A stretch of DNA of 64,000 nt from Deltaproteobacteria bacterium. GTDB lineage: Bacteria > Desulfobacterota > GWC2-55-46 > UBA9637. The position numbers and the translations under genes are program-made. A model generated the notes under the pieces. It made no database searches and had not been told where the DNA came from. It was given only the letters and a program-made list of their open reading frames with translations. Shown here one piece after another: positions 7,697 through 64,000 of this stretch. Position 1 is the first letter of the stretch. The number at the start of each line of letters is the position of its first letter. The DNA lies in assembly GCA_016219285.1 (NCBI GenBank), contig JACRNJ010000032.1:21721-85720 (forward strand), in the 5' to 3' direction.

Positions 7697-8674
7697 ATGA
7701 AGATTAAGATTAAAATTTCACGCTGCGACCCTATGGGTAAAGGCTGGTGCGAGCCGTTTCTCCAAGCCTATGACATAGAGGTAAAAGAGGGTATGACTAT
7801 CCTTGATGCCATTCATCTTGTGAAGGATGTGCAGGATGGGACGTTGGCATTCAGACGGTCTTGCCGGAGCGCTATCTGCGGTTCCTGTGCTGTGAACATA
7901 AATGGTTTTCCAAAACTTGCTTGTAAGACACAGCTTATTACCGAATACAGGAAAAAAGAGTCAATGGTCATTGAACCCCTTTCAAACCACAGGGTGATAA
8001 AAGACCTTGTTGTTGATTTTAATCCATTCTGGGATAAGATAAATAAAGTGGAACCGTGGTTGAATCGTAAGTCGGCTATCAGCCATCAGCCATCAGCTGT
8101 CAGCAAAAAAGATGTTTTGAAGATAGATAATTCCAGCAAATGTATTATGTGCGGATGCTGTAATGGAGCCTGTAATACATTAGAGATTGATAAACATTTT
8201 ATTGCCCCGGCTGCTTTGGCAAAGGCATGGAGGTTTGTGGGTGATGTAAGGGAAGGGGAGAAGAAGAAAAGACTGGAAAAGCTCAGCGAGGCGCATGGTA
8301 TGTGGGATTGCGTAAGATGCGTAAACTGCACTCAGTATTGCCCAAAAGACGTAGCGCCACTTCAGGCAATAGAAAGATTAAGGGCAGAGGCAATAAATCA
8401 AGGAGTTATAGATAATCATGGCGCAAAACATGTAAAATCAATGGTTGATTCCGTGAAGAGGGTGGGCAGACTGGATGAGGCCGCAATGACTTTCAAGACG
8501 CTTGGTTTTTTGCGCTCTTTAGGCATGATACCCTTTGGGTTGAAAATGGAAATGCACGGAAAAATGCCTATGCCGCTCATATTTCCGCAGATTGAAAAAA
8601 TTGAAGAGGTGAAGAAAATATATGAGGAGATAGAGAAGAGAAAGGAGCAGGTTGAGGTTAAGGTAGAGAAGTAA
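7697..8674 (+). CDS. succinate dehydrogenase/fumarate reductase-type iron-sulfur subunit (FrdB/SdhB-like) with C-terminal extension
   Basis: 2Fe-2S ferredoxin motif CRSAICGSCAVNING plus two 4Fe-4S motifs CIMCGCCNGACN and CVRCVNCTQYCP. An in-frame simple-sequence insert lies at 8077-8104. A C-terminal extension of about 80 aa is present. Confidence 0.75.
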   Translation: MKIKIKISRCDPMGKGWCEPFLQAYDIEVKEGMTILDAIHLVKDVQDGTLAFRRSCRSAICGSCAVNINGFPKLACKTQLITEYRKKESMVIEPLSNHRVIKDLVVDFNPFWDKINKVEPWLNRKSAISHQPSAVSKKDVLKIDNSSKCIMCGCCNGACNTLEIDKHFIAPAALAKAWRFVGDVREGEKKKRLEKLSEAHGMWDCVRCVNCTQYCPKDVAPLQAIERLRAEAINQGVIDNHGAKHVKSMVDSVKRVGRLDEAAMTFKTLGFLRSLGMIPFGLKMEMHGKMPMPLIFPQIEKIEEVKKIYEEIEKRKEQVEVKVEK

Positions 8675-20218: not shown

Positions 20219-20320
20219 ATTCGTGCTAAGAGCATAGCACAAACTTTATGAATTGCAAGGAGGGGCATTCTTTTCTTGAACAATCCATAGAAATTGATAT
20301 TATGATTGAGATTTTAGAAT

Positions 20321-20373
20321 GTAGTTTGCCCATTTATGGGCGTCTTAAAAATCGCCGATAAATCGGCAACTAC
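20321..20373. mobile_element. MITE-like palindromic element, canonical 53 bp copy
   Basis: gtagtt-tgcccatttatgggcg-tcttaaaaat-cgccgataaatcggca-actac. It has terminal inverted repeats and two internal perfect palindromes. Confidence 0.85.
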
Positions 20374-20392
20374 AACTTGAGGTTATAGAACC

Positions 20393-22716: not shown

Positions 22717-22721
22717 AGAAT

Positions 22722-22790
22722 GTAGTGTGCCCATTTATGGGCGTATTTAAAAACGTAGATAAACCGATAAGCTGCAAATCATTGACTACA
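22722..22790. mobile_element. MITE-like element, degenerate copy
   Basis: gtagtgtgcccatttatgggcg...cgtagataaaccgataagc...gactacaatc. Confidence 0.6.
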
Positions 22791-24233: not shown

Positions 24234-24899
24234 ATGTCCATTTCCGTCATAATTCCAACCTTGAATGAAGAAGATAATCTTGAACATACCTTGAAATCAG
24301 TTGGCCAAGATGCGGAGATTATTATTGCAGACGCCGGAAGCAGTGATTCCACAATCAAAATAGCCAATGGGTTCACAGACAAGATTATCATGTCGGAAAA
24401 AGGAAGAGGCGCTCAGATGGATAACGGGGCAAGAATGGCGACAGGCGATATATTCCTTTTCCTACATGCAGACACAAGGCTTCCTGATGGCTGGATGGAA
24501 AAAGTTGCAGAAGCGCTAAAAGATGCTAAAGTTGTTGGAGGGGGGTTCAGGTTAAAAATAAACTCAGGAAAATTCTCTTTTAGTATTATAGAGGCAATAG
24601 TTAATCTTCGGTCAAGACGCCTTGGCTTTATCTACGGGGACCAGGCTATATTTGTCAGAAGGGATGTCTTTTTATCGGTTGGAGGTTTTATGGGGCTTCC
24701 ACTGATGGAGGATGTGGACTTAATGAGAAGGCTCAAGAAGGTTGGCAAGGTTATTTTAGTGGATGCGCAGGCCTCTACATCTCCGAGGCGCTGGGAGAAG
24801 AGAGGTGTTTTGAGGACAACTTTAAGAAACTGGATGTTTTTGAGCCTTTATTATCTTGGTGTTTCTCCGCAAAAATTATATAAATGTTATTATCAGTAG
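24234..24899 (+). CDS. family 2 glycosyltransferase
   Basis: N-terminal pattern SVIIPTLNEE...IIADAGSSD...GRGAQMDNG...GDIFLFLHADT is a GT-A fold with a DxD region. The ATG at 24234 is preferred over the ORF-track start at 24177, which lies in the hairpin. Confidence 0.7.
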   Translation: MSISVIIPTLNEEDNLEHTLKSVGQDAEIIIADAGSSDSTIKIANGFTDKIIMSEKGRGAQMDNGARMATGDIFLFLHADTRLPDGWMEKVAEALKDAKVVGGGFRLKINSGKFSFSIIEAIVNLRSRRLGFIYGDQAIFVRRDVFLSVGGFMGLPLMEDVDLMRRLKKVGKVILVDAQASTSPRRWEKRGVLRTTLRNWMFLSLYYLGVSPQKLYKCYYQ

Positions 24900-25014
24900 T
24901 CTGCCGATTTATCGGCGATTGTAACTCAAACCTTCAGATTTGAGTTTTTCAAGGCTAAAGCCTTGAGTTACAAAATGCGCCCATAAATGGGCAGGCTGCA
25001 AAAATATTAACTAC
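24896..25014. mobile_element. MITE-like element, inverted orientation with nested internal hairpin insert
   Basis: gtagtctgccgatttatcggcg...(gtaactcaaa...ttgagttac insert)...cgcccataaatgggcag...aactac. Confidence 0.8.
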
Positions 25015-28142: not shown

Positions 28143-29489
28143 TTATTTGGCGCTGACCGGTATTGTAAACCTAAAAGTGGTTCCTTTGTCCAGTTCACTT
28201 TCTATTGAAATAGTGCCGCCGTGCCTCTCAATTATATGCCTTGTCATGGCAAGGCCAAGACCTGTGCCTTTTGTTGTTTTTATAACATTACCAGCCCTGA
28301 AGAATTCTTCAAAGATGTGCGGCATGTCATTTGACGGTATGCCAATCCCTGTATCTTTTATCTCCGCAATAATGTAGCCATTTTTTCGTGAAACCTTTAT
28401 CCAGACATTTCCTCCATGTTGAGTATATTTGAACGCATTGGCAATGAGGTTTAGGAAGGCATAGGTTATTAATTCCCTGTCAGCCTTTATATCTGGCAAC
28501 TGCGCATCAATTTCTATGTTTAACTGTATATCCTTTTCTCCCATCTTCGACGATGCAATCTCCACAGCGGTATCTATAGCCTCTTTTATATTAAATATCT
28601 TCAGATTAAGATTTTTCTCCGCCCTTATTCTGGAGAGATCAAGAAGGTCTTTTGCATAATGATGGAGAAATTCTGTTTTTTTCTGAATTCTCTGCAAAAC
28701 CTCTTTTACCTTTTCATCAAGGGTACCGGCAAACCCGCCTATCACTACCTCCAAAAGGCTCTGAATGGAGGCAAGGGGAGACTTTAAATCATGGCTGACC
28801 ATCTTTACATATTCATCTTTAAGTCTATCCTTTTCCAATAATTTCAGGTGAGCCTCCTCTAACTCTTTTTCCCTGTTTTTAAGCTTTTCTGCCAGGGATG
28901 CAGTGAAAAAGGTGGCGATGAAAATGGTGGATGTCAATACGAATGATATAGCTGCCGTATATATCTTATTTTTGTAAAGGTCTATGCCCAAAAATCCATT
29001 TACAGAGTGGTGAGGTAGAGTGTTTAGATATTCAAGCGTAAAGAGGCCGACTGTCAGAATAGAAATAATGCATGCCTGGATATAGGCCTCTTTTTTTGAG
29101 AGGAGCATGCTCGTAAGTATAGTATGGAAGATGAAATAAAATATAAATGGGTTTTCAGCGCCGCCTGTAAAGTGTATGAGAACAGTCAGGCTCAAAATGT
29201 CCAGCATACTCTGAAGAATCGCAAATCTCCGTATGGTCTTATGCAGATTGCCGGCAGATCTCTTGTTTATATAAAACTTAAAAATGGCATTATAAAGAGC
29301 TATGAATATGGCGATGAGATATACAGGAAGGTCAGGAAAGGAGACATTGAATAGATAGATAGACGTAAACGTTGCGGCAATAATAAATATCACAGCAGCC
29401 CAGCGTATATTTATGAGCCACTTTAGTCTTTCTACGAGTTCTTCTTGCCACAGATCTGTCTTATGCACATTTGTTTGCAGTTGCCGCAT
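28143..29489 (-). CDS. membrane sensor histidine kinase
   Basis: N-terminal 5-6 transmembrane segments, HisKA H-box MVSHDLKSPL, and an HATPase (DTGIGIP...GTGLGLAM). Confidence 0.85.
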   Translation of the reverse strand: MRQLQTNVHKTDLWQEELVERLKWLINIRWAAVIFIIAATFTSIYLFNVSFPDLPVYLIAIFIALYNAIFKFYINKRSAGNLHKTIRRFAILQSMLDILSLTVLIHFTGGAENPFIFYFIFHTILTSMLLSKKEAYIQACIISILTVGLFTLEYLNTLPHHSVNGFLGIDLYKNKIYTAAISFVLTSTIFIATFFTASLAEKLKNREKELEEAHLKLLEKDRLKDEYVKMVSHDLKSPLASIQSLLEVVIGGFAGTLDEKVKEVLQRIQKKTEFLHHYAKDLLDLSRIRAEKNLNLKIFNIKEAIDTAVEIASSKMGEKDIQLNIEIDAQLPDIKADRELITYAFLNLIANAFKYTQHGGNVWIKVSRKNGYIIAEIKDTGIGIPSNDMPHIFEEFFRAGNVIKTTKGTGLGLAMTRHIIERHGGTISIESELDKGTTFRFTIPVSAK

Positions 29490-29530
29490 TTATTGGGCTT
29501 ATTAAAGGCGCCGATAAATCGGCACACTAC
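29476..29530. mobile_element. MITE-like element, degenerate copy
   Basis: gcagttgccgcatttattgggc...ggcgccgataaatcggcacactac. Confidence 0.55.
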
Positions 29531-31362: not shown

Positions 31363-31554
31363 TCATGTCTTTTCGTATGCCTTTATGAAATCGTCTCTTG
31401 AAATGCCAGCTTGTGTGCAAATTGTTCTTAATGTGGAAGCCTTTATTTTGGGATGATTTGGCATGGTCAAAGGAGTTTTACTACCATCAGGGTTCTCCCG
31501 CACCATTGAGATATGTTCTTTTTCACGAACGATACGGAAACCTAAGATTTCCAA
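31363..31554 (-). CDS. hicA: HicA-family toxin (mRNA interferase)
   Basis: 63 aa with the pattern GF...E..HI.M....DGSKTPLTMPNHPKIKASTLRTICTQAGIS, typical of HicA/YcfA. Immediately downstream of hicB. Confidence 0.6.
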   Translation of the reverse strand: MEILGFRIVREKEHISMVRENPDGSKTPLTMPNHPKIKASTLRTICTQAGISRDDFIKAYEKT

Positions 31555-31602
31555 TGCCTTTACTACTTTCCGCTTTGTGGCGTCAACTGGAAACTTAGGT
31601 AT

Positions 31603-31827
31603 TTAAGCATCTACCCCTGTTTCGGCAACAAATGCCTCAAGGATAGGTGGTTCAATATCAAGGCCTTCTTCTCCAAAAGTCTCTATATGAAAACGGATTG
31701 CGGATTTAACATCCGCCAACGCCTCTTCGTATGTATCACCTTGGCCAACTACAATACTCTTGATTCCTAAAGGATATGCAACATAGCCATCAGTATGTTT
31801 TTCCACTATTATTTTATACTGTTTCAT
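31603..31827 (-). CDS. hicB: HicB-family antitoxin
   Basis: 74 aa with YKIIVEKHTDGYVAYPLGIKSIVVGQGDTYEEALADVKSAI, typical of the HicB N-domain (UPF0150). Confidence 0.65.
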   Translation of the reverse strand: MKQYKIIVEKHTDGYVAYPLGIKSIVVGQGDTYEEALADVKSAIRFHIETFGEEGLDIEPPILEAFVAETGVDA

Positions 31828-31890
31828 ACCATCTCCTTTGATTTTCTTTTGATTGAATTATATAACAAAAAAATGATTTGTTCATCATTT

Positions 31891-32100
31891 TTAAATGTTG
31901 CCTAACGTGATTGGTCTTTGTGAAGTCCCGCCCTTGGCGGGATTTGGGCGAATGAAGTGAGTCACAAACACCCTGTTATCTGCCGTTGCAGGCAATCTTA
32001 AAGTAAATCCATCCAATTTTTCTTCAAATGCTAAAAAGCAAGACCTGACCCCCATGCCCTCTGCTGGCACAGATACCAATCTTTCGCGTGACAATTTAGA
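31891..32100 (-). pseudogene. vapC: C-terminal half of a PIN-domain (VapC) toxin gene, displaced by the RAYT element insertion
   Basis: ...LDGFTLRLPATADNRVFVTHFIRP resembles the PIN C-terminal D..IAATA...LVT.N..DF region. It lies immediately outside the left inverted repeat of the RAYT element, while the N-terminal half lies outside the right inverted repeat. Confidence 0.45.
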
Positions 32101-32101
32101 G

Positions 32102-32723
32102 GTAGGTTGGGTTGAGCAAAGCGAAACCCAACAATTCATTCATACCCTACATCCTCATCAAATTGAATCTCACAACCTGCCCCCCAATCGCTCTTGTAAA
32201 TGCCCTGTTTAACATAACGATGAAAACTTGAATATGCCCAGTCGCGTGGCAATGTTACCAGACTATGTTTAACAGGATTGTAATGGATGTAATTACAATG
32301 CGCCTCAAAATCTTTCTCGTCTCTAATCTGATGCTCCCAAAACCGCCTCTGCCAAACCGCTTGTTCTCCCTTACTTAATTTTGAGGCAGATCTAAAGCCT
32401 TTATATCCATCCTGACATTGTCTGCTAAAATAGCTTTTTATAAGCCCCCATCGCAGAGAAAAATCATTATCGTTGTGCGGCAATGTCCAGATACAGTGAA
32501 TATGATCGGGCAGCAAAACAAATGCGTCAATCCGAAAGGTGTGTCTGTTGATAACATACTGAAACGCTTCTTTTATCAACCGTATGTTTGCTTCATGGCA
32601 TAAAATCCTTTTCCTCCCGTGCGTTACCACCGTAAAGAAAAATGCCGCCCCTTTTGCCTTTGACCTGCGATAACGCATTGCTTTTTATGATTATGTTGGG
32701 TTTCGTTCCTCAACCCAACCTAC
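32102..32723. mobile_element. RAYT (REP-associated tyrosine transposase) unit bounded by hairpin inverted repeats
   Basis: Left end is gtaggttgggttgagcaaagcgaaacccaaca. Right end is tgttgggtttcgttcctcaacccaacctac, its inverse, and each end is an 8-bp-stem hairpin. The unit encloses one transposase gene. Confidence 0.8.
32136..32678 (-). CDS. REP-associated tyrosine transposase (IS200/IS605 TnpA-like, Y1 HUH family)
   Basis: HuH motif LPDHIHCIW and catalytic Tyr region NYIHYNPVKH. Length 180 aa, which is longer than IS200 TnpA and typical of RAYTs. Confidence 0.8.
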   Translation of the reverse strand: MRYRRSKAKGAAFFFTVVTHGRKRILCHEANIRLIKEAFQYVINRHTFRIDAFVLLPDHIHCIWTLPHNDNDFSLRWGLIKSYFSRQCQDGYKGFRSASKLSKGEQAVWQRRFWEHQIRDEKDFEAHCNYIHYNPVKHSLVTLPRDWAYSSFHRYVKQGIYKSDWGAGCEIQFDEDVGYE

Positions 32724-32898
32724 CAACTTCAGTAAGGGTTATGACAGAAGAAAAAGCGCTCAATCTCTCTGACTGAAAAGAATCAACCACTTCTTTGGCA
32801 ATTGATCCAAACTGAGGATTAGCTTCGATGTAATAAATGATGGGCGCTGTATCTATGAAAATAGTATTTATTTGATCAAGTTCATCCGAGAGGGTCAT
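32710..32898 (-). pseudogene. vapC: N-terminal half of PIN-domain (VapC) toxin gene truncated at the RAYT element boundary
   Basis: IFIDTAPIIYYIE has the first PIN Asp and ITLTEV has the second acidic residue. The ORF ends inside the right inverted repeat of the RAYT unit. Confidence 0.5.
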
Positions 32899-33119
32899 AT
32901 CCGATCCTCTCTCAAACGATTAACATACTCTTGAGCATCTTCACCTTTCCATAACCCTTTCCCAAGGCCATAGAGTTTATTCCAGTCAAGTTCCTTTTTC
33001 ATAGCAAGTCCTGTCTTGCCTAATTGATGAACAAGCCTTTCTACTAATTTTAACTGTTCCTGAGGCGTAAGTTTTCCTATCTCTTTTCCAATCTTTTCTA
33101 AGGTAACTCCTTTTTTCAT
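32895..33119 (-). CDS. putative antitoxin partner of the disrupted PIN toxin
   Basis: 74 aa, 4-nt overlap with the vapC fragment, positioned upstream as antitoxins usually are. Family not recognised with confidence. Confidence 0.35.
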   Translation of the reverse strand: MKKGVTLEKIGKEIGKLTPQEQLKLVERLVHQLGKTGLAMKKELDWNKLYGLGKGLWKGEDAQEYVNRLREDRI

Positions 33120-33577
33120 TTTAACCCCCTTTCTTTAATTTATTATCATTCTCCAAGGTAAACAAATATGTCTGTATTATAATATCAACACAAAAGTTTT
33201 GCTATATTATTAAAGCGCCCCAAAAATAGATATTGATTTTTTGAGAAACCTGCAAGTCCTTGACAGACGTTTCACCTGTCAAGGGCAAGTTGGCTGTTAG
33301 ACAACACACCCCTAAATCCCCTCTCGAGAGGGGACTAAAGGGGCGTGTTATTTACAACGAGCCCTCCCCCTTTATCCCCCTCATGGAGGGGGACAGGGGG
33401 AGGATACGGTGAGGAGCAAAGATGTGCCGATAACGAAGTATGGCAGGCAAATCGCAGGTTTGTAAAATAGCGAGGTTTTTAATCGCTATTTTACGGAAGT
33501 GCTTAATGGTGTCTGACGTGTTCATAGGCGAATAATTCGCTTTTTTATTTGGGAACAGTCTCCTTGGAAGTCTTTTC

Positions 33578-36543: not shown

Positions 36544-37341
36544 ATGAGGTTATTTGTTTTCAGCGCTTTAATTCTATACATTTTAACTTTTCTGCTTGTT
36601 ATCTTCTATCACATAACAAAAAAAGAGAGCATTGAAACCCTTTCCAAATCTGCCGTCATAATCGGGCTTATCACCCATACCATTGCTTTATCTATAAGGA
36701 CATATGAATCAGGCCATGCGCCCATGATGGCCATGTATGAAACACTGCTTTTTTATAGCTGGTCAACTATTCTTGTAAGCGCCATTGTGATATTCCGATA
36801 CAATGAAAGACTTACAGAGCTTATAACCATCCCTGTTGCCATACTGGCAATGGTCTTCGCTCAACTCAATGAAACGTCTGCAAAACCATTAACGTTGATA
36901 TTAAAGACACGTTGGTTTGAAACCCATGTAATAGCGTCATTTGCAGCATACGCCATGTTTACACTATCATTTTCAGGAGCGCTGTTATATTTACTCTCTG
37001 AACTCCGCGTCAGTTCTGCGGGCGCCCAAAACGCTGAACTTAAAAAAGATTTCCAGGACATTGCCAATAGAAGCATCCTCTGGGGGTTTTTCTTCTTTTC
37101 CGCTTCCATGTTTGCAGGCGCGATATGGGCATACCTTGCATGGGGCACATACTGGCTTTGGGAGCCGAAGGTCATCTGGTCATTCATCGTCTGGTTTTAC
37201 TATGCAGGCGCAATGCATGCATATTATGTAAAGGAGTGGAGGGGCAGAGGCTTGGTAATTGCAACTGTGCTCGGATTTTTTGTGGTGCTGTTTACATATC
37301 TTGGGGTGAGTCTCTTAATGAAGAGTAGCCACAGTTTTTGA
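36544..37341 (+). CDS. ccsA: cytochrome c assembly protein CcsA/ResC family (heme handling)
   Basis: Polytopic membrane protein with a tryptophan-rich WWD-type segment (WAYLAWGTYWLWEPKVIWSFIVW) and conserved His residues. Confidence 0.7.
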   Translation: MRLFVFSALILYILTFLLVIFYHITKKESIETLSKSAVIIGLITHTIALSIRTYESGHAPMMAMYETLLFYSWSTILVSAIVIFRYNERLTELITIPVAILAMVFAQLNETSAKPLTLILKTRWFETHVIASFAAYAMFTLSFSGALLYLLSELRVSSAGAQNAELKKDFQDIANRSILWGFFFFSASMFAGAIWAYLAWGTYWLWEPKVIWSFIVWFYYAGAMHAYYVKEWRGRGLVIATVLGFFVVLFTYLGVSLLMKSSHSF

Positions 37342-37428
37342 CGGCTTTGTAAAAAGTCCATCTGTGGAGCCTGTTCCGAGCAAAGTGAGAAATCTTGGTC
37401 TTCGCTGCGGCTTCTGCGTTCAACACCT

Positions 37429-37483
37429 GTAGTTTGCCCATTTATGGGCGTTTTTTAAAAGCGCCGATAAATCGGCAGACTAC
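37429..37483. mobile_element. MITE-like element, canonical copy
   Basis: gtagtttgcccatttatgggcgttttttaaaagcgccgataaatcggcagactac. Confidence 0.85.
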
Positions 37484-37530
37484 ACCCATATTCTATAGAT
37501 ACAGAAGAAAGAAAAACCATTTTATTATTC

Positions 37531-37830
37531 ATGGCGATACTTAGTATTGTTTTGTCTTGGAGTTTTTATAATGTAATTAACAGTTATCAAATTATTTTGC
37601 CTTGGTGGGTTGAAAGTCCTTCTGTGTTGTTTTTCTATGGATTACTTTTTGTTGTCTTTGATAAATGGGCTTGGAAATATTTTAGGAAGATCGGTATTGT
37701 AAGAACTCCTAATCTAAATAGGGAGCGGAACGGACATTTAAAATTTTCTTTTGATGAGCATTCATCAGAAATAAAAGCAACTTTACGAATTTTTCAAACT
37801 TGGACAAAAATAAAAACTTTATATCTCTAA
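37531..37830 (+). CDS. small two-transmembrane-helix membrane protein, function unknown
   Basis: ORF only, with two hydrophobic helices. No recognisable family. Confidence 0.3.
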   Translation: MAILSIVLSWSFYNVINSYQIILPWWVESPSVLFFYGLLFVVFDKWAWKYFRKIGIVRTPNLNRERNGHLKFSFDEHSSEIKATLRIFQTWTKIKTLYL

Positions 37831-37943
37831 AAATTAGTCAGACTACCATCAAACACCGCATTGAACAGCGAACTCTATAACGTTGAGGAAAATAGAGGGA
37901 ACAGCAACCATTTAAATTGCCTTTGTCTGTAAGAATATATGGA

Positions 37944-38007
37944 AATAAAATCAGGACAGGCATTTTTCTTCTGTATTGCAAAAGTGGGAAACGCCACAGG
38001 CGCATTA
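37944..38007. repeat. direct repeat DR-left bracketing a toxin-antitoxin islet
   Basis: aatcaggacaggcatttttcttctgtattgcaa...gccacagg. A 35 bp near-identical core is repeated at 39497-39530. Confidence 0.8.
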
Positions 38008-38071
38008 TCTTTCAGAACAAAATGTAAGAGATTGCAATTGTGAAGGGGAAAGGGTAAAATGGAGAAAATCA

Positions 38072-38266
38072 ATGAAAGTGCGTGATATTATAAAGCTGAT
38101 AGAGGCTGATGGATGGTATAGAGTGGACACAAAGGGCAGTCATAGGCAATACAAACATGCATGGAAAACTGGCAGGGTTACTATTGCTGGACATCCGAAC
38201 TACGATTTAGCCCCTGGCACTCTGAACAGCATCTTAAAACAATCTAAGTTAAAGGAGGTAAAGTAG
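38072..38266 (+). CDS. hicA: HicA-family toxin
   Basis: MKVRDIIKLIEADGWYRVDTKGSHRQYKH...GRVTIAGHPNYDLAPGTLNSILKQ is the canonical HicA motif. A GGAG ribosome-binding site lies upstream. Confidence 0.75.
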   Translation: MKVRDIIKLIEADGWYRVDTKGSHRQYKHAWKTGRVTIAGHPNYDLAPGTLNSILKQSKLKEVK

Positions 38267-38479
38267 ATGCATCGTTTTCTTATTGTAATTGAAAAAGCCG
38301 AGGGTAACTACTCGGCATATTCTCCAGATTTGCCGGGTTGCATTGCAACAGGCGCAAGCAGGGAAGAAACGGAACGCAACATGCATGAAGCAATTGAAAT
38401 GCATGTGCGCGGTTTGATAGAGGATAATCTGCCTGTCCCTGTGTCAACATCTTTTGCTGAATATGTGGCAGTTCCCTGA
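38267..38479 (+). CDS. hicB: HicB-family antitoxin
   Basis: FLIVIEKAEGNYSAYSPDLPGCIATGASREETERNMHEAIEMHV is a HicB/UPF0150 fold. Confidence 0.7.
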   Translation: MHRFLIVIEKAEGNYSAYSPDLPGCIATGASREETERNMHEAIEMHVRGLIEDNLPVPVSTSFAEYVAVP

Positions 38480-38506
38480 ACCGGACTTGTATGAAACCAC
38501 GGTAAG

Positions 38507-38707
38507 TTGTCCCTCGCTGCTCAAATCCTCGCCGCCAAAAAGCAACACACCCCTCAATCCCCTCTTGATAGAGGGGAATTACCCAACGCCGATACCTCCG
38601 CCTTTGAGCGTCAGATTGATGAAATGGTTTATAAACTCTACGACCTCACACCGGAGGAGATTGCAATTGTGGAGGGGTTGGATATTGATGTTGACAAATT
38701 ACAATAA
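38507..38707 (+). pseudogene. C-terminal tail remnant of a DNA methyltransferase/restriction-modification type gene
   Basis: ERQIDEMVYKLYDLTPEEIAIVEG is the conserved C-terminal helix of many N6-adenine methyltransferase and type IIG restriction-modification proteins. Only about 66 aa are present. Confidence 0.35.
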
Positions 38708-38778
38708 GCCTATTGATACAACAGTCTGTTTCTGTTATGATAGTCTTAATTCTGGTCAACCAGAAAGGAGGTTAAAAA

Positions 38779-39039
38779 ATGAAAACATTGTCGCTCTCTG
38801 AGGCAAAGATGAAACTAAGCAGCCTTGTGGATTCGGTATATAAAACTGACGAGGAGGTCATCATTACAAAAAACGGCTCACCTGCTGCAGTCCTGATAAG
38901 CCCTGATGAATTTGAAGGATGGAAGGAGACTATTGCCATACGTTCTGATGCTGCCTTTATGGAGGAAATAAAGAAGGGGTTGGCATCCCTGAAAAAAGGC
39001 AGGGCAAAGTTCTATACACTCGAGGAGCTGTTCAGATAG
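38779..39039 (+). CDS. Phd/YefM-family antitoxin
   Basis: MKTLSLSEAKMKLSSLVD...EEVIITKNGSPAAVLISPDEFE is the Phd/YefM signature. Confidence 0.8.
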   Translation: MKTLSLSEAKMKLSSLVDSVYKTDEEVIITKNGSPAAVLISPDEFEGWKETIAIRSDAAFMEEIKKGLASLKKGRAKFYTLEELFR

Positions 39040-39330
39040 ATGAGCATTCTCAGGCTGAAAATGTCTGATGAGATGGCGGACTTAATCCGCTCCCTTCACC
39101 CTGATATAAAACGAAAGATTAAGGCCGCATTACAAACTGTTTTAAGTGACCCCCTGTCAGGCAAGGCATTAAAAGATGAACTTGAGGGACTGCAAAGTTT
39201 TAAAGTGGGGAAGTTCAGGGTGATTTATAAAACAACAAAAGACAAAGGAGTTATTGAAGTTGTAACCATTGGACCTCGAAAAACTATATATGAAGAAACT
39301 TTGAGGCTTTTAAAAAGGGGAAAATTATAA
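39040..39330 (+). CDS. relE: RelE/ParE-family toxin
   Basis: 96 aa. The 1-nt junction with the antitoxin and the pattern ...KVGKFRVIYKTTKDKGVIEVVTIGPRK is the RelE/ParE fold. Confidence 0.75.
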   Translation: MSILRLKMSDEMADLIRSLHPDIKRKIKAALQTVLSDPLSGKALKDELEGLQSFKVGKFRVIYKTTKDKGVIEVVTIGPRKTIYEETLRLLKRGKL

Positions 39331-39490
39331 GACAAGAATTTAGTCTTCTCTGAAGACAGCCTTATCGAACAACCAGCCATTTAGATTTTCAGGTCTCTCG
39401 CCTATGCACATCTGGACTGCTATAACGAAACCTTTGGCGAGACCGGCACTCTCGGCAGAGAGACTTCAACTGATGCTGTTTTAAAACCAG

Positions 39491-39568
39491 AATAAAAATC
39501 AGGACAGGCATTTTTCTTCTGTCTTGCAATCTGTCTTGCAATAGAGAAAAGCCACAGACATATAATGA
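39491..39568. repeat. direct repeat DR-right bracketing the toxin-antitoxin islet
   Basis: aatcaggacaggcatttttcttctgtcttgcaatctgtcttgcaa...gccacagac. The ttgcaa unit is duplicated relative to DR-left. Confidence 0.8.
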
Positions 39569-39613
39569 GTGCATTAATATTCGCAATGTGCTAATCAGTG
39601 CTTGCCAAAATAC

Positions 39614-39672: not shown

Positions 39673-40119
39673 ATGAGGTTATCTACCAAAGGGCAATATG
39701 CAGTAAGGGCGATGGTCAGCCTTGTTTGCCATGAAAATGGAGGGCCTATTACACTGAAAGATATATCTGAGAGCGAGGGTATATCACTGGCTTATCTTGA
39801 GCAGCTGTTTGTTAAGCTCAGGAAGGGCAATATTGTAAAGAGTGTAAGGGGGCCTGGCGGCGGATATGTGTTGGCGAGGCCGGCAAGCGAGATAAAAGTT
39901 GGAGAGGTTATAACCGTGGTAGAAGAGTCTTTAAACCCGGTTGCATGTCTTGATGGTGACATTTCCATGTGCACAAGGACAAATAAGTGCGTAACCCAAC
40001 GTGTTTGGAAAGGGCTGGGCGATAAGATGAAGGAGTTCTTGGATTCAATAACAATAGAAGATTTAAGCCGAGAGGCAAATGAGTTAAAGAGTGCTGGAGT
40101 TAAGGAGTTTAGGAGTTAA
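39673..40119 (+). CDS. iscR: Rrf2-family Fe-S cluster regulator IscR
   Basis: Rrf2 helix-turn-helix (LSTKGQYAVRAMVSL) and three Cys ligands (C...C....C) at IscR spacing. Sits upstream of iscS-iscU. Confidence 0.85.
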   Translation: MRLSTKGQYAVRAMVSLVCHENGGPITLKDISESEGISLAYLEQLFVKLRKGNIVKSVRGPGGGYVLARPASEIKVGEVITVVEESLNPVACLDGDISMCTRTNKCVTQRVWKGLGDKMKEFLDSITIEDLSREANELKSAGVKEFRS

Positions 40120-40164
40120 CTCCTAAACTCCTTAACTCTCAACTTAAAAAATAAGGAGGTTGTT

Positions 40165-45189: not shown

Positions 45190-45312
45190 GGCAGCGACAT
45201 AAATTTGTAGTCTGCCGATTTATCGGCGGTTTTAAAATACGCCCATGGGGCACCCAACAGAAGGTTGGGTCGGGCAAACTACAGCTACTTATTTTTGTCG
45301 TCCACTATAGAA
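45190..45312. mobile_element. MITE-like element (long form) directly after the rnc stop
   Basis: agcgacataaatttgtagtctgccgatttatcggcgg...cgcccatggggcacccaacagaaggttgggtcgggcaaactacagctac...atttttgtcgtc. It is the un-nested counterpart of 14384-14622. Confidence 0.8.
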
Positions 45313-62207: not shown

Positions 62208-63209
62208 TTAAATCTTCCACCCTCTAAGTTTGTTTGCTTCTCTGATGAAATTAATATTCGGTCTGTCGTTCACTGCTGGCGGAACATTTATGATTGGTCG
62301 TAGGTCTTTCATAAACCTGTCCATTCCACCATCAAAGCCAATTTTTTTGAGCTTTTTCATTTCGTTTGTATTCACGATGATTTGATATTGCTCATTGAAA
62401 GTTACAAGTCCTTTGTCGTATGCACGATGATATAAAGCCGAAAGTGATATGCCGTTCGCTGTGTCATCAGTTGAATCATTGTAGTTAACAGGAACGATGT
62501 GAGCAGCGTCAACAAGTTTCAACTGCATTCCGCTAAATGCACATTTGTTGCTGTATGCTGTCAAAACTCTTGTCTTGAAACTTGTATCGCGAAGTTTTTT
62601 GCTTAACTGAATAACCGCTGTCTGCCTTTGCTTGCTTACTTGCTGAATAAGTTCTGCGTTTAATTCAAGAGGCTGGTCTGAAACTTCCGCTAAAACCTTG
62701 AAGTCTTTTGTGGAAACTCCGAAGCTGTGTAGTTGTTCTAAACTCTGAACATAGTTCACAAAAAAATCAGGACGAAATGCAGTTGCAATTTCTCCATTGC
62801 CTTTGTCGCAAGGGGAGAAACCATTGATGAGGGCTTTACGCAGAAATTCCTCTCTGATTTGCATTGATGGCGAAAAGCCAAGTTTTCCAGTGTGTTTCGT
62901 ATAATCAAAACCCGCGAAAACGCCAACTTCACTCCACCAGCCAAGTATTAATGTTTTCTCACCTTCTTTTTGTTCAAAATGGTCAGCGCCCGTAATTTGA
63001 ATACGATACTCGTCTTTTGGTCTTGCTGTACCACCCCCGTGAGTTAAATTCCAAATATAAATTCGGAGTAAATAACTTTCTTCATTGTTGTAAATTTTGA
63101 TGACAAAAGGATGGTTTGAAATGTCGCCAACATATAGCACATTCCAACCGCTATCGTTTATTGATTGAACGATAATATCAAGTAAGTCATACTTTCTGTG
63201 CTTTGTCAT
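62208..63209 (-). CDS. putative type II restriction endonuclease with C-terminal HNH nuclease motif
   Basis: C-terminal HNH core (CAFSGMQLKLVDAAHIVPV...NGISLSALYHRAYDKGL). Overlaps the upstream methyltransferase gene by 23 nt on the same strand. The segment is compositionally distinct. Confidence 0.5.
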   Translation of the reverse strand: MTKHRKYDLLDIIVQSINDSGWNVLYVGDISNHPFVIKIYNNEESYLLRIYIWNLTHGGGTARPKDEYRIQITGADHFEQKEGEKTLILGWWSEVGVFAGFDYTKHTGKLGFSPSMQIREEFLRKALINGFSPCDKGNGEIATAFRPDFFVNYVQSLEQLHSFGVSTKDFKVLAEVSDQPLELNAELIQQVSKQRQTAVIQLSKKLRDTSFKTRVLTAYSNKCAFSGMQLKLVDAAHIVPVNYNDSTDDTANGISLSALYHRAYDKGLVTFNEQYQIIVNTNEMKKLKKIGFDGGMDRFMKDLRPIINVPPAVNDRPNINFIREANKLRGWKI

Positions 63210-64000
63210 TTAGTTTATGCTCTGAATAGAAAAGGTCATGTTCTTCTTCAAAACGGATTTTACTTCCTTCTAAATATGGTTCGTTTATTTCTATTGCTAT
63301 CCATTTCCGATTAAGCAACTCAGCGACATAGCCAGTCGTATTGCTACCGGCAAAAGGGTCAAGGACTAAATCCCCCCTGTTTGTTGTGAACTTGATAAAG
63401 AAGTCCGCAAAGTCCTTCGGAAATCTTGCGGGGTGTGATTTTATTTCTAATTCTTTACAACGCCTCATATATTGGCTGTTGCTCTCAGTGTTTGCAAGTC
63501 CCAAAAGGTTTGGTGGAATTGCCCCGCCATTATCCGTTTTAAATTTTTCAGAAATGTCGTGCCCGCTTGGACGCATTTGTGCTTTGTAGCCATTTTTCAA
63601 AAGAGCTTTCATGCTGTCGCTGTATGGCTTCAAAACTTTTCTGTTGTCCGATTTTGGATATTCCGATTTTGAAAGCCACCAAACAACATTAACACTGTCC
63701 TTAACTCTTATTCTGCGAACTGTTACCCACTCGGCGGGTGTTGGTAGCCGTGCAGGGTTGTAATGAAAAAACTCTTGTGCAAGAAAAAAGTTTTGCTCTC
63801 GGCAAAGTCGCACAAGTAATTCATATTGATAAATGCTTCTTACAGGATGTCCAGGTAAATATGCACCCCCTAAGTCAATTACAAGTGAGCCATCATTTTT
63901 AAGCAGACGATGAAACTCTTTTGAGAACTGTAAAAACCAGCCAATGTAATGTTCTTCCAGTTTGTTGCCGTATTCCTTTTGTCGTGTCAGTGCAAAAGGT
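63187..64000 (-). CDS. DNA methyltransferase, N4/N6 beta-class (5' end beyond window)
   Basis: C-terminal motif I DPFAGSNTT preceded by the HPARFP (HPtxKP-like) motif. The reading frame stays open to position 64000 (…KNDGSLVIDLGG…), so the N-terminus with the DPPY motif lies outside the window. Confidence 0.8.
   Translation of the reverse strand, partial: PFALTRQKEYGNKLEEHYIGWFLQFSKEFHRLLKNDGSLVIDLGGAYLPGHPVRSIYQYELLVRLCREQNFFLAQEFFHYNPARLPTPAEWVTVRRIRVKDSVNVVWWLSKSEYPKSDNRKVLKPYSDSMKALLKNGYKAQMRPSGHDISEKFKTDNGGAIPPNLLGLANTESNSQYMRRCKELEIKSHPARFPKDFADFFIKFTTNRGDLVLDPFAGSNTTGYVAELLNRKWIAIEINEPYLEGSKIRFEEEHDLFYSEHKLNDKAQKV

Follow-up and report, generated by a model that had tools for sequence, protein, structure and literature searches.

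What is marked by two direct repeats that bracket a handful of toxin-antitoxin (TA) genes between ccsA and the isc operon, and how did these genes come to lie there? The locus belongs to an uncultured groundwater member of the Deltaproteobacteria/Thermodesulfobacteriota, represented by a metagenome-assembled genome (MAG) of which 64 kb were covered (64,000 nucleotides (nt), hereafter the window). An earlier note on this DNA had described a TA islet of about 1.5 kb, laid out like a cassette and either integron-like or a small recombination-delimited defence/addiction islet. Comparison with similar gene arrays bears out a small, recombination-shaped islet of addiction and defence genes. Judged by its sequence, the segment 37485-39601 is probably a small, partly decayed array of TA and defence cassettes in a variable hot spot after ccsA. 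From left to right, it is composed of a truncated effector gene (Cap15'), a direct repeat (DR) core with a methylase tail, hicAB, a remnant of the 3' end of a gene for a type IIG restriction-methylase (MT3), phd-parE, a fragment of hsdR (hsdR') and a chimeric DR.

Gene content was assigned with Pfam, and defence genes were also assigned with PADLOC profiles. The locus was compared with 19 related ccsA loci and with 28 array contigs retrieved through DR or cassette elements, 5 of them by a scan of metagenomes with a 26-mer of the repeat and about 20 more via identical Phd and HicB proteins. Contigs are labelled L and proteins P, followed by a number. All features lie on the forward strand unless marked (-).

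Direct repeats and gene content of the islet

The direct repeat seen earlier is real. Two stretches of 40 nt (37942-37981 and 39490-39529) are 93% identical and share a core of 33 nt, which starts at 37949, one position to the right of the coordinate first given, and at 39497. The resulting spacing of 1548 nt agrees with the claim that about 1.5 kb are enclosed. Within the core, the 26-mer AATCAGGACAGGCATTTTTCTTCTGT is exact at both positions, and these are its sole two copies in the 64 kb at up to 3 mismatches; the number of matches expected by chance was 0 (100 dinucleotide shuffles). A length of about 40 bp holds for the stretches of 93% identity, but the true extent of the repeats is greater, with a left unit of about 110 nt (37947-38057) and a right unit at 39495-39601. 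The left unit comprises DR-left (37947-38009), identified by repeat alignment and folding as the core of a junction element of about 65 nt with a short hairpin, and a leader (38010-38057) that links this core to hicA and, according to repeat comparison, holds the methylase tail GAGATTGCAATTGTGAAGGGG (38028-38048). The tail stops 23 nt 5' of the hicA start, and the same spacing was found in six other array contexts.

The islet lies where it had been placed, between ccsA (36544-37341) and iscR (39673-40119). No tRNA gene was found at the islet, nor any G+C anomaly across it. The genes hicA (38072-38266; Pfam HicA_toxin PF07927, 1.3e-20) and hicB (38267-38479; HicB_lk_antitox PF15919, 4.4e-12) are adjacent, with intact open reading frames (ORFs), as expected of a predicted type II TA system of the HicAB type. 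Likewise, phd/yefM (38779-39039; PhdYeFM PF02604, 1.4e-18) and parE (39040-39330; ParE_toxin PF05016, 2.1e-8) are adjacent and intact and would constitute a type II system of the Phd/YefM-ParE type; a promoter-like site 5' of phd (38713-38741), TTGATA-17-TATGAT with TG, is a consensus match only. Between the two pairs lies an ORF of 66 amino acids (aa; 38507-38707), in which no Pfam domain was found. It matches the PADLOC profile REase_MTase_IIG (E 2e-9) at positions 1114-1144 of 1148 only and is therefore a 3'-end remnant, not an enzyme: it represents MT3, what is left of a gene for a type IIG restriction-methylase (its last ~66 codons), with a tail of its own at 38657-38677. The gene content listed earlier (hicA-hicB, a methylase-type C-terminal remnant and phd/yefM) was thus confirmed with Pfam and PADLOC, except that the toxin left as RelE or ParE is ParE, not RelE.

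Two features next to ccsA had been overlooked. One is a terminator-like intergenic repeat (37425-37484, with a hairpin and T-run at 37435-37450), which forms the left edge of the variable region. The other is a truncated effector gene of the Cap15/2TM type (Cap15', 37531-37830; Pfam Cap15_TM 1.4e-8, PADLOC 2TM effector E 1e-34), as known from cyclic oligonucleotide-based antiphage signalling systems (CBASS). Cap15' covers positions 18-115 of the 204 of the 2TM effector profile and lies outside the DR bracket and inside the variable region. It is not part of a full CBASS: the effector is partial, and the interval 37341-37947 is too short for a cyclase gene.

Upstream of the right repeat, mutually complementary segments had been taken as a hint of a structured RNA. 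Such segments exist (39393-39464), but a structured RNA at 39360-39490 was ruled out. The fold of 39331-39495 was insignificant against shuffles (z -1.07 on the forward and +0.02 on the reverse strand), no compensatory change was seen among 40 predicted pairs in four related sequences, in which 4 pairs were broken, and no Rfam match was obtained at E<=1. A 49-aa peptide from this region was left unnamed by Pfam, NCBIfam, PADLOC, PDB and BLASTP against L045; a large protein search, however, found the homologue P0122, which is 67% identical over 94% of the fragment and continues into a Pfam HSDR_N domain. The region is therefore the decayed 5' end of hsdR, a pseudogene fragment (hsdR', 39337-39495) that corresponds to the N-terminal part of a type I restriction R subunit and has an in-frame stop (..SEDSLIEQPAI, stop, IFRSLAYAHLDCYNETFGETGTLGRETSTDAVLKPE, stop). 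It travels with parE in L006 and L026-L034.

Comparison with related ccsA loci

The neighbourhood of ccsA and the isc genes, which had been put forward as a frame for comparing relatives, is not conserved: iscR lies within 10 kb of ccsA in 0 of the 19 related loci, and the gene after ccsA varies even between close relatives, being ubiB in L008 (abutting, with no islet), rsmE in L009 and ilvC in L010. The closest relative, L006, whose CcsA is 89% identical, keeps the order of the window as far as 37484, where homology stops at the end of the terminator-like repeat. It continues with a type III restriction-modification (RM) cluster at the place of Cap15', followed by a DR, a methylase tail, phd-parE, hsdR' and a second DR, beyond which lie a lipoprotein gene and then ubiB, not iscR. 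Phd is 100% and ParE 95% identical between the window and L006, and the shared order DR-phd-parE-DR indicates that the DR pair around phd-parE is older than the species split.

By contrast, hicAB and the methylase remnant are missing in L006, leaving an indel of 629 nt. Its ends are not the DRs but 21-nt repeats GAGATTGCAATTGTGRAGGGG at 38028 and 38657; these are single-copy in L006, the exact repeat extends over only 21 nt, and no mobility gene is present. The notion that the 40-bp repeats delimit a cassette thus does not hold: the sole indel relative to L006 is bounded by methylase tails, and the variable region (37485-39601) exceeds the DR-bracketed segment.

Homology with L006 stops again inside or just after DR-right (39495-39601), which comparison with relatives identifies as a chimeric junction element; it forms the right-hand boundary of the islet, and synteny breaks there. 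DR-right carries a 12-nt tandem duplication (39518-39541), and its right half is diverged. The left half, together with the upstream flank, matches the DR that follows hsdR' in L027, and the right half (..ATAATGAGTGCATTAATATTCGCAATGTGCTAATCAGTG) corresponds to the DR on the far side of the lipoprotein gene in the same contig. DR-right is thus chimeric for the two DRs that flank this lipoprotein gene, which points to a DR x DR deletion of that gene.

Some smaller repeats were also seen at these loci. In L006, six tandem copies of the 11-nt unit GGAAATAGAGG (8510-8580) stand just 5' of a methylase remnant and DR, and the motif occurs as a single copy at 37885-37899 of the window. The terminator-like repeat of about 55 nt is present after ccsA in L006 as well (2586-2645). 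In L010 (12353-15170), a more distant relative, a DNA methylase gene and a restriction-enzyme-like gene lie between ilvC and ilvN and hicAB lies between ilvN and ilvB, so that here, too, a core operon is interrupted by defence and TA genes.

The direct repeats as a family of junction elements

A search for further copies of the core, proposed in the earlier note, yielded 17 distinct DR copies, spread over the window and 25 of the 28 array contigs (L001-L006, L025-L034, L038 and others). All 17 are situated in spacers of arrays of small TA and defence genes. Besides TA pairs from many families, the cargo of these arrays includes a fragment of an OLD/AAA ATPase, a PDC-S04-like protein and further genes. 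Orientation is uniform, in the sense of most array genes, with one DR-flanked lipoprotein gene on the opposite strand. The DR is hence not the common intergenic repeat of unrelated loci that would have spoken against a link with cassette cargo: it was absent from the ccsA loci of 18 of the 19 relatives. It was likewise not found in arrays of other phyla or in phage, viral and plasmid collections, and the exact 26-mer was not found in representative genomes. Going by these searches, the element is apparently confined to this lineage of groundwater Deltaproteobacteria/Thermodesulfobacteriota. With two copies in 64 kb and all other known copies in cassette arrays, it does not resemble repetitive extragenic palindromes (REP), bacterial interspersed mosaic elements or miniature inverted-repeat transposable elements; terminal inverted repeats were not found in the DR. 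That the pair arose as a one-off local duplication or matches by chance would fit the mere two copies in the 64 kb, but is extremely improbable in view of the chance expectation of 0, the recurrence of the same pair around phd-parE in L006 and the 17 distinct copies in arrays.

The conserved core comprises about 65 nt (AAAATCRGGACAGGCAYTTTTCTTCTGTCTTGCAA..GGGAAAMGSCACAGGCRCATTATC), is 85-100% conserved among copies and is usually followed by the 21-nt tail, beyond which the next gene starts. It holds three ACAG/CTGT motifs; an inverted pair and a direct copy of ACAG(G/A)CA are also present in the DR. Most copies are predicted to form a hairpin, with 9 pairs including two G-U pairs in single-copy folds and 7 pairs in the consensus; with a consensus fold of -2.6 kcal/mol and one compensatory change, a conserved RNA structure is unconvincing. 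Coding potential was ruled out by 2-nt indels between copies.

These properties bear on the idea that the DR serves chiefly in expression, as leader, promoter, insulator or RNA-processing hairpin with a ribosome-binding site of its own, and was co-amplified with the cassettes; its repetition would then be a side effect, and DR-right the orphaned leader of a lost cassette. We consider this unlikely, for the DR as for DR-right. The element does stand always upstream of a cassette and in sense, leading into a tail whose GGAGG lies 4-41 nt before many starts; the hexamers TTGCAA and CATTAT are the best-conserved parts of the core, and the G-U pairs make the hairpin stronger on the sense strand. 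The hexamers are spaced by 19-21 nt, however, which is outside the sigma-70 range, whereas the nearby iscR and phd promoters are canonical with 17 nt. Promoter-like sites were no commoner in a scan than in shuffles, no terminator-type T-run follows the weak hairpin, and no Rfam match was obtained. A sigma-70 promoter was rejected on these grounds, and a sigma-54 promoter was rejected by eye for mismatched spacing. A role in expression would nevertheless be compatible with the explanation favoured below.

The methylase gene end as a more widespread spacer

Intact type IIG genes in L004, L038 and L044 end in ..QQPFITLVDQILAAK..ADTSALERQIDEMVYxLYGLTxEEIAIVEG.., and the 66-aa remnant of the window aligns with these gene ends. 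MT3 corresponds to the last ~55-65 codons of such a gene, the final 21 nt of which encode ..EEIAIVEG and contain GGAGG. The arrays follow a pattern in which a cassette is typically preceded by the last ~21-30 nt of MT3 and followed by its first 30-40 nt or by a whole copy. The tail was present within 130 nt upstream of 25 of the 41 cassette starts examined and 4-41 nt upstream of many, so that its GGAGG can serve as a ribosome-binding site. The layout is clearest in L044, where an intact type IIG gene ending in MT3 is followed by zeta-like, AIPR, HicB-like and hicAB cassettes with an MT3 copy (150-230 nt) before each; the block tail-hicAB-MT3 of this contig is 85% identical to that of the window over 585 nt. 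MT3-spaced arrays were also found amid housekeeping genes in two further MAGs, one from Nitrospirae (L045) and one from Thermodesulfovibrionales (L046/47).

An exhaustive, profile-free search with the 66-aa remnant returned matches in 1015 clusters at 50% identity. About 130 of the best 150 clusters were shorter than 140 aa, and in long proteins the match was always at the extreme C-terminus. A protein search gave 164 short homologues; some short matches may be genes cut by contig ends, and three that were inspected on long contigs proved to be internal standalone copies. Hundreds of 'hypothetical proteins' of 40-100 aa from MAGs of Deltaproteobacteria, Nitrospirae, Thermodesulfovibrionales and Brocadia were seen to be standalone type IIG tails, several with the shared start point MNQQPFITLVDQIL, and annotations should be read with the warning that such entries are methylase-tail remnants. 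Inside the methylase tail of the window lies a G+C-rich palindromic mini-element, CACCCCTCAATCCCCTCTTGATAGAGGGG (38543-38576; translated as ..PQSPLDRGE..), which varies in copy number in the tails of other taxa (proteins P0004, P0019 and P0027).

In two MT3 remnants (L038 3250-3445, L006 8560-8725), the DR core is embedded in place of the 'LYGLTPEE' part, and the DR is on this basis read as a lineage-specific derivative of the MT3 spacer. The element of about 65 nt appears to have replaced the middle of an older, more widespread spacer. The MT3 tail itself contains a perfect 8-bp palindrome, ATTGCAAT; tail variants GATTGAGATTG and GATTGCGGTTG break the palindrome and keep the same position. 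No description of TA/defence arrays spaced by methylase tails was found in the literature, a result that, with incomplete coverage, is weak evidence of novelty; MT3-spaced arrays may be undescribed so far.

Re-assortment of cassettes and its possible mechanism

Identical HicB proteins occur in at least four array contexts and identical Phd proteins on 23 contigs. The sites that share identical cassettes include larB...larC, type IIG methyltransferase...clpB-like, kinase-TPR and ccsA loci. In L031, two array types are cleanly recombined, and the crossover falls inside hicAB: segment 1438-2105 of this contig shows full identity with the L035 type as far as about +410 of hicAB and with the L026 type from about +235 onward. 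The comparison showed that cassettes and cassette blocks re-assort between arrays at different chromosomal sites, that the breakpoints fall within repeated spacers or shared cassettes, and that the window holds one product of a DR x DR deletion. Truncated genes are abundant in the arrays (Cap15', hsdR', res', HEPN' and DUF4258 pieces) and, together with the variable breakpoints, argue against precise site-specific excision.

As the favoured explanation, we infer that general homologous recombination between repeated spacers would make these rearrangements without a dedicated integrase, assisted by illegitimate recombination and possibly following DNA uptake. The tail would be kept as the supplier of a ribosome-binding site for the next gene. 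Given recombination between spacers and such a use of the tail, the DRs would act as portable homology, not as the ends of a transposable unit.

The main competitor is a dedicated recombinase (tyrosine, serine or HUH) that acts in trans on the DR core or the palindromic tail, a site comparable to integron attC, Tn3-family res or pdif sites, and excises or inserts cassettes. Such an enzyme would account for the uniform orientation of 17 of 17 DR copies, for the sharp and recurrent boundaries of MT3 with a tail that abuts cassette starts, and for the presence of blocks at unrelated chromosomal sites. The perfect palindrome ATTGCAAT of the tail and, in the DR, the inverted pair and direct copy of ACAG(G/A)CA would be suitable targets, and a ParE/RelE system flanked by res-I sites has been described in Photorhabdus (PMC13617665). 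No candidate was found, however, in the 64-kb window or beside the DR-rich arrays. The check for a nearby integrase suggested earlier was negative for the window: a tyrosine recombinase was detected neither with Pfam Phage_integrase on the 30 ORFs of at least 150 aa nor in a phmmer search with an XerD-like integrase against six-frame ORFs of at least 80 aa (none at E<=10). The sole nearby integrase (L035-L039) is XerD-like and stands two unrelated genes away from the array. Furthermore, palindrome-breaking tail variants occupy the same position, crossovers also occur within cassettes, truncated genes are abundant and the DR hairpin is almost devoid of covariation. A recombinase acting in trans is accordingly judged improbable. 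Mobilisation by an HUH (IS200/RAYT) enzyme of the window was rejected, its RAYT-like gene (32136-32678) having its own, unrelated flanking hairpins.

Several points nonetheless weigh against the favoured role of homologous recombination. All mechanistic statements are drawn from comparative structure, and no recombination event was directly seen. Homologous recombination alone leaves unexplained the founding of arrays at new chromosomal sites, the sharp MT3 boundaries (QQPF... to the stop codon) and the 85-100% conservation of a non-coding core of 65 nt. The tail palindrome ATTGCAAT or the ACAG/CTGT motifs of the DR could be a putative protein-binding site, and a recombinase could be encoded elsewhere in the source genome, of which 64 kb were covered. 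Finally, the DR-right junction, with its chimeric structure, 12-nt duplication and synteny break, could be an assembly artefact.

Other features of the window

The terminator-like repeat at the left edge of the variable region belongs to an intergenic family of about 55 nt with a hairpin and T-run, with members at 37425-37484, 20320-20375, 22721-22766, 24896-24917 (-), 29481-29530 and 45205-45246 (-). To the right of the islet, a perfect palindrome of 21+21 nt without a spacer (40097-40138) falls exactly on the junction of the iscR stop and the iscS start. A second TA islet (31363-33119 (-)) lies between the genes for the large and small subunits of a NiFe-hydrogenase and contains hicA-like and hicB-like genes, the RAYT-like Y1 transposase gene (32136-32678; Pfam Y1_Tnp 1e-7), a truncated PIN gene (32710-32898) and a vapB-like gene. 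Inverted REP-like hairpins stand on either side of the transposase gene (~32108-32135 and ~32697-32722), and copies related to the mini-element CACCCCTCAATCCCCTCTTGATAGAGGGG lie at 33302-33400 in this islet. At the end of the window (62208-63813 (-)), an MTaX1+HNH protein is encoded beside an N6/N4 DNA methylase, probably as an RM-like pair.

Significance and comparison with known systems

Viewed in isolation, the islet amounts to an ordinary variable hot spot of TA genes; the most notable part is the occurrence of methylase-tail arrays across phyla. MT3-spaced arrays of small defence and addiction genes were found in at least three lineages, and identical cassettes recur between arrays. A broader proposal, which we put forward tentatively, is that TA and abortive-infection genes travel as cassettes with the conserved 3' end of type IIG genes as a homing or recombination handle. 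In several phyla of anaerobic groundwater and sediment, namely Thermodesulfobacteriota, Nitrospirota and perhaps the source of a Brocadia-labelled MAG ORF (the ORF alone, without gene context), they might then line up as integron-like arrays 3' of RM genes and at secondary chromosomal sites with no need of an integron integrase; such a system of cassette capture would be undescribed so far. The 65-nt DR would, just as tentatively, be a lineage-specific derivative of the spacer, possibly bound by a putative protein. If the arrays reflect a real capture mechanism and not accumulated recombination scars, defence genes would have their own counterpart of the integron that works without an integrase, the clustering of TA genes beside RM genes would be explained, and MT3 would provide a simple sequence handle for finding new small defence cassettes in metagenomes.

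The nearest analogue in appearance is the chromosomal integron or its degenerate form, the cluster of attC sites lacking integron integrases (CALIN). The arrays share with these systems small TA and defence cassettes mostly in one orientation, similar repeats of ~60-200 nt between them (about 100 nt for the islet) and combinatorial re-assortment between arrays, and TA cassettes are typical of chromosomal integrons. That the islet is a degenerate integron array with attC sites as its repeats is very improbable all the same, and the earlier suggestion of an integron-like cassette was not upheld. No IntI or other tyrosine recombinase was found in the window, and neither DR carries an RYYYAAC...GTTRRRY pair. 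A simple scan for RYYYAAC/GTTRRRY core sites 50-150 nt apart gave a single pair (38581/38683), inside the methylase remnant, and at least as many were obtained in 99 of 500 shuffles. The repeats are not attC-type imperfect palindromes, and the spacers demonstrably derive from coding sequence, the type IIG 3' end, or come from the lineage-specific 65-nt element. They lie 5' of the cassettes, for which they would supply a ribosome-binding site; moreover, breakpoints are imprecise and truncated genes are common.

The pdif modules of Acinetobacter plasmids often carry TA pairs and are bounded by 28-bp XerC/XerD sites in alternating inverted orientation. The present arrays resemble them as non-integron modules, often with TA pairs, bounded by short repeated sites. 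The DRs, however, are direct, chromosomal and about 65 nt long, and they lack convincing XerC/D half-sites: by eye, GGCGCATTAT weakly resembles a XerC arm, with no XerD arm.

A further parallel is offered by Rhs and contact-dependent inhibition (CDI) loci, in which orphan modules (cdiA-CT/cdiI) are re-assorted by homologous recombination at a conserved fragment. There, an in-frame fusion joins the fragment to a new toxin tip, so that recombination alters the main protein. In the arrays described here, the fragment is instead the extreme 3' end of the gene, and the cargo consists of separate genes. The likeness lies in the tandem modules downstream of a full gene, each starting with a short piece from the conserved region of that gene (Zhang et al. 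2012, PMC3482391).

Another likeness is to the TA islets of Photorhabdus, which are tiny, contain TA genes only, lack mobility genes, differ between close relatives and erode; homologous recombination has been proposed to move them, acting in the core genes on either side or at Tn3 res-I sites (PMC13617665). In the arrays studied here, the homology is carried inside the array, in the form of repeated spacers.

The closest described class of rearrangement is the RM-linked 'insertion with long target duplication', in which genes inserted next to RM genes stand between direct repeats of >30 bp that occur once at the unoccupied site, and mobility genes are lacking (PMC2853133). The same study showed that the conserved flanks of type IIG recognition domains act as a substrate for recombination (Furuta, Abe & Kobayashi 2010, PMC2853133). 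In those cases the cargo is an RM system and the events are single, whereas the cargo here consists of TA and abortive-infection genes and is iterated into arrays; the target duplicated here is one and the same methylase 3' end in every case, and the repeat around hicAB in the window amounts to only 21 nt of exact identity.

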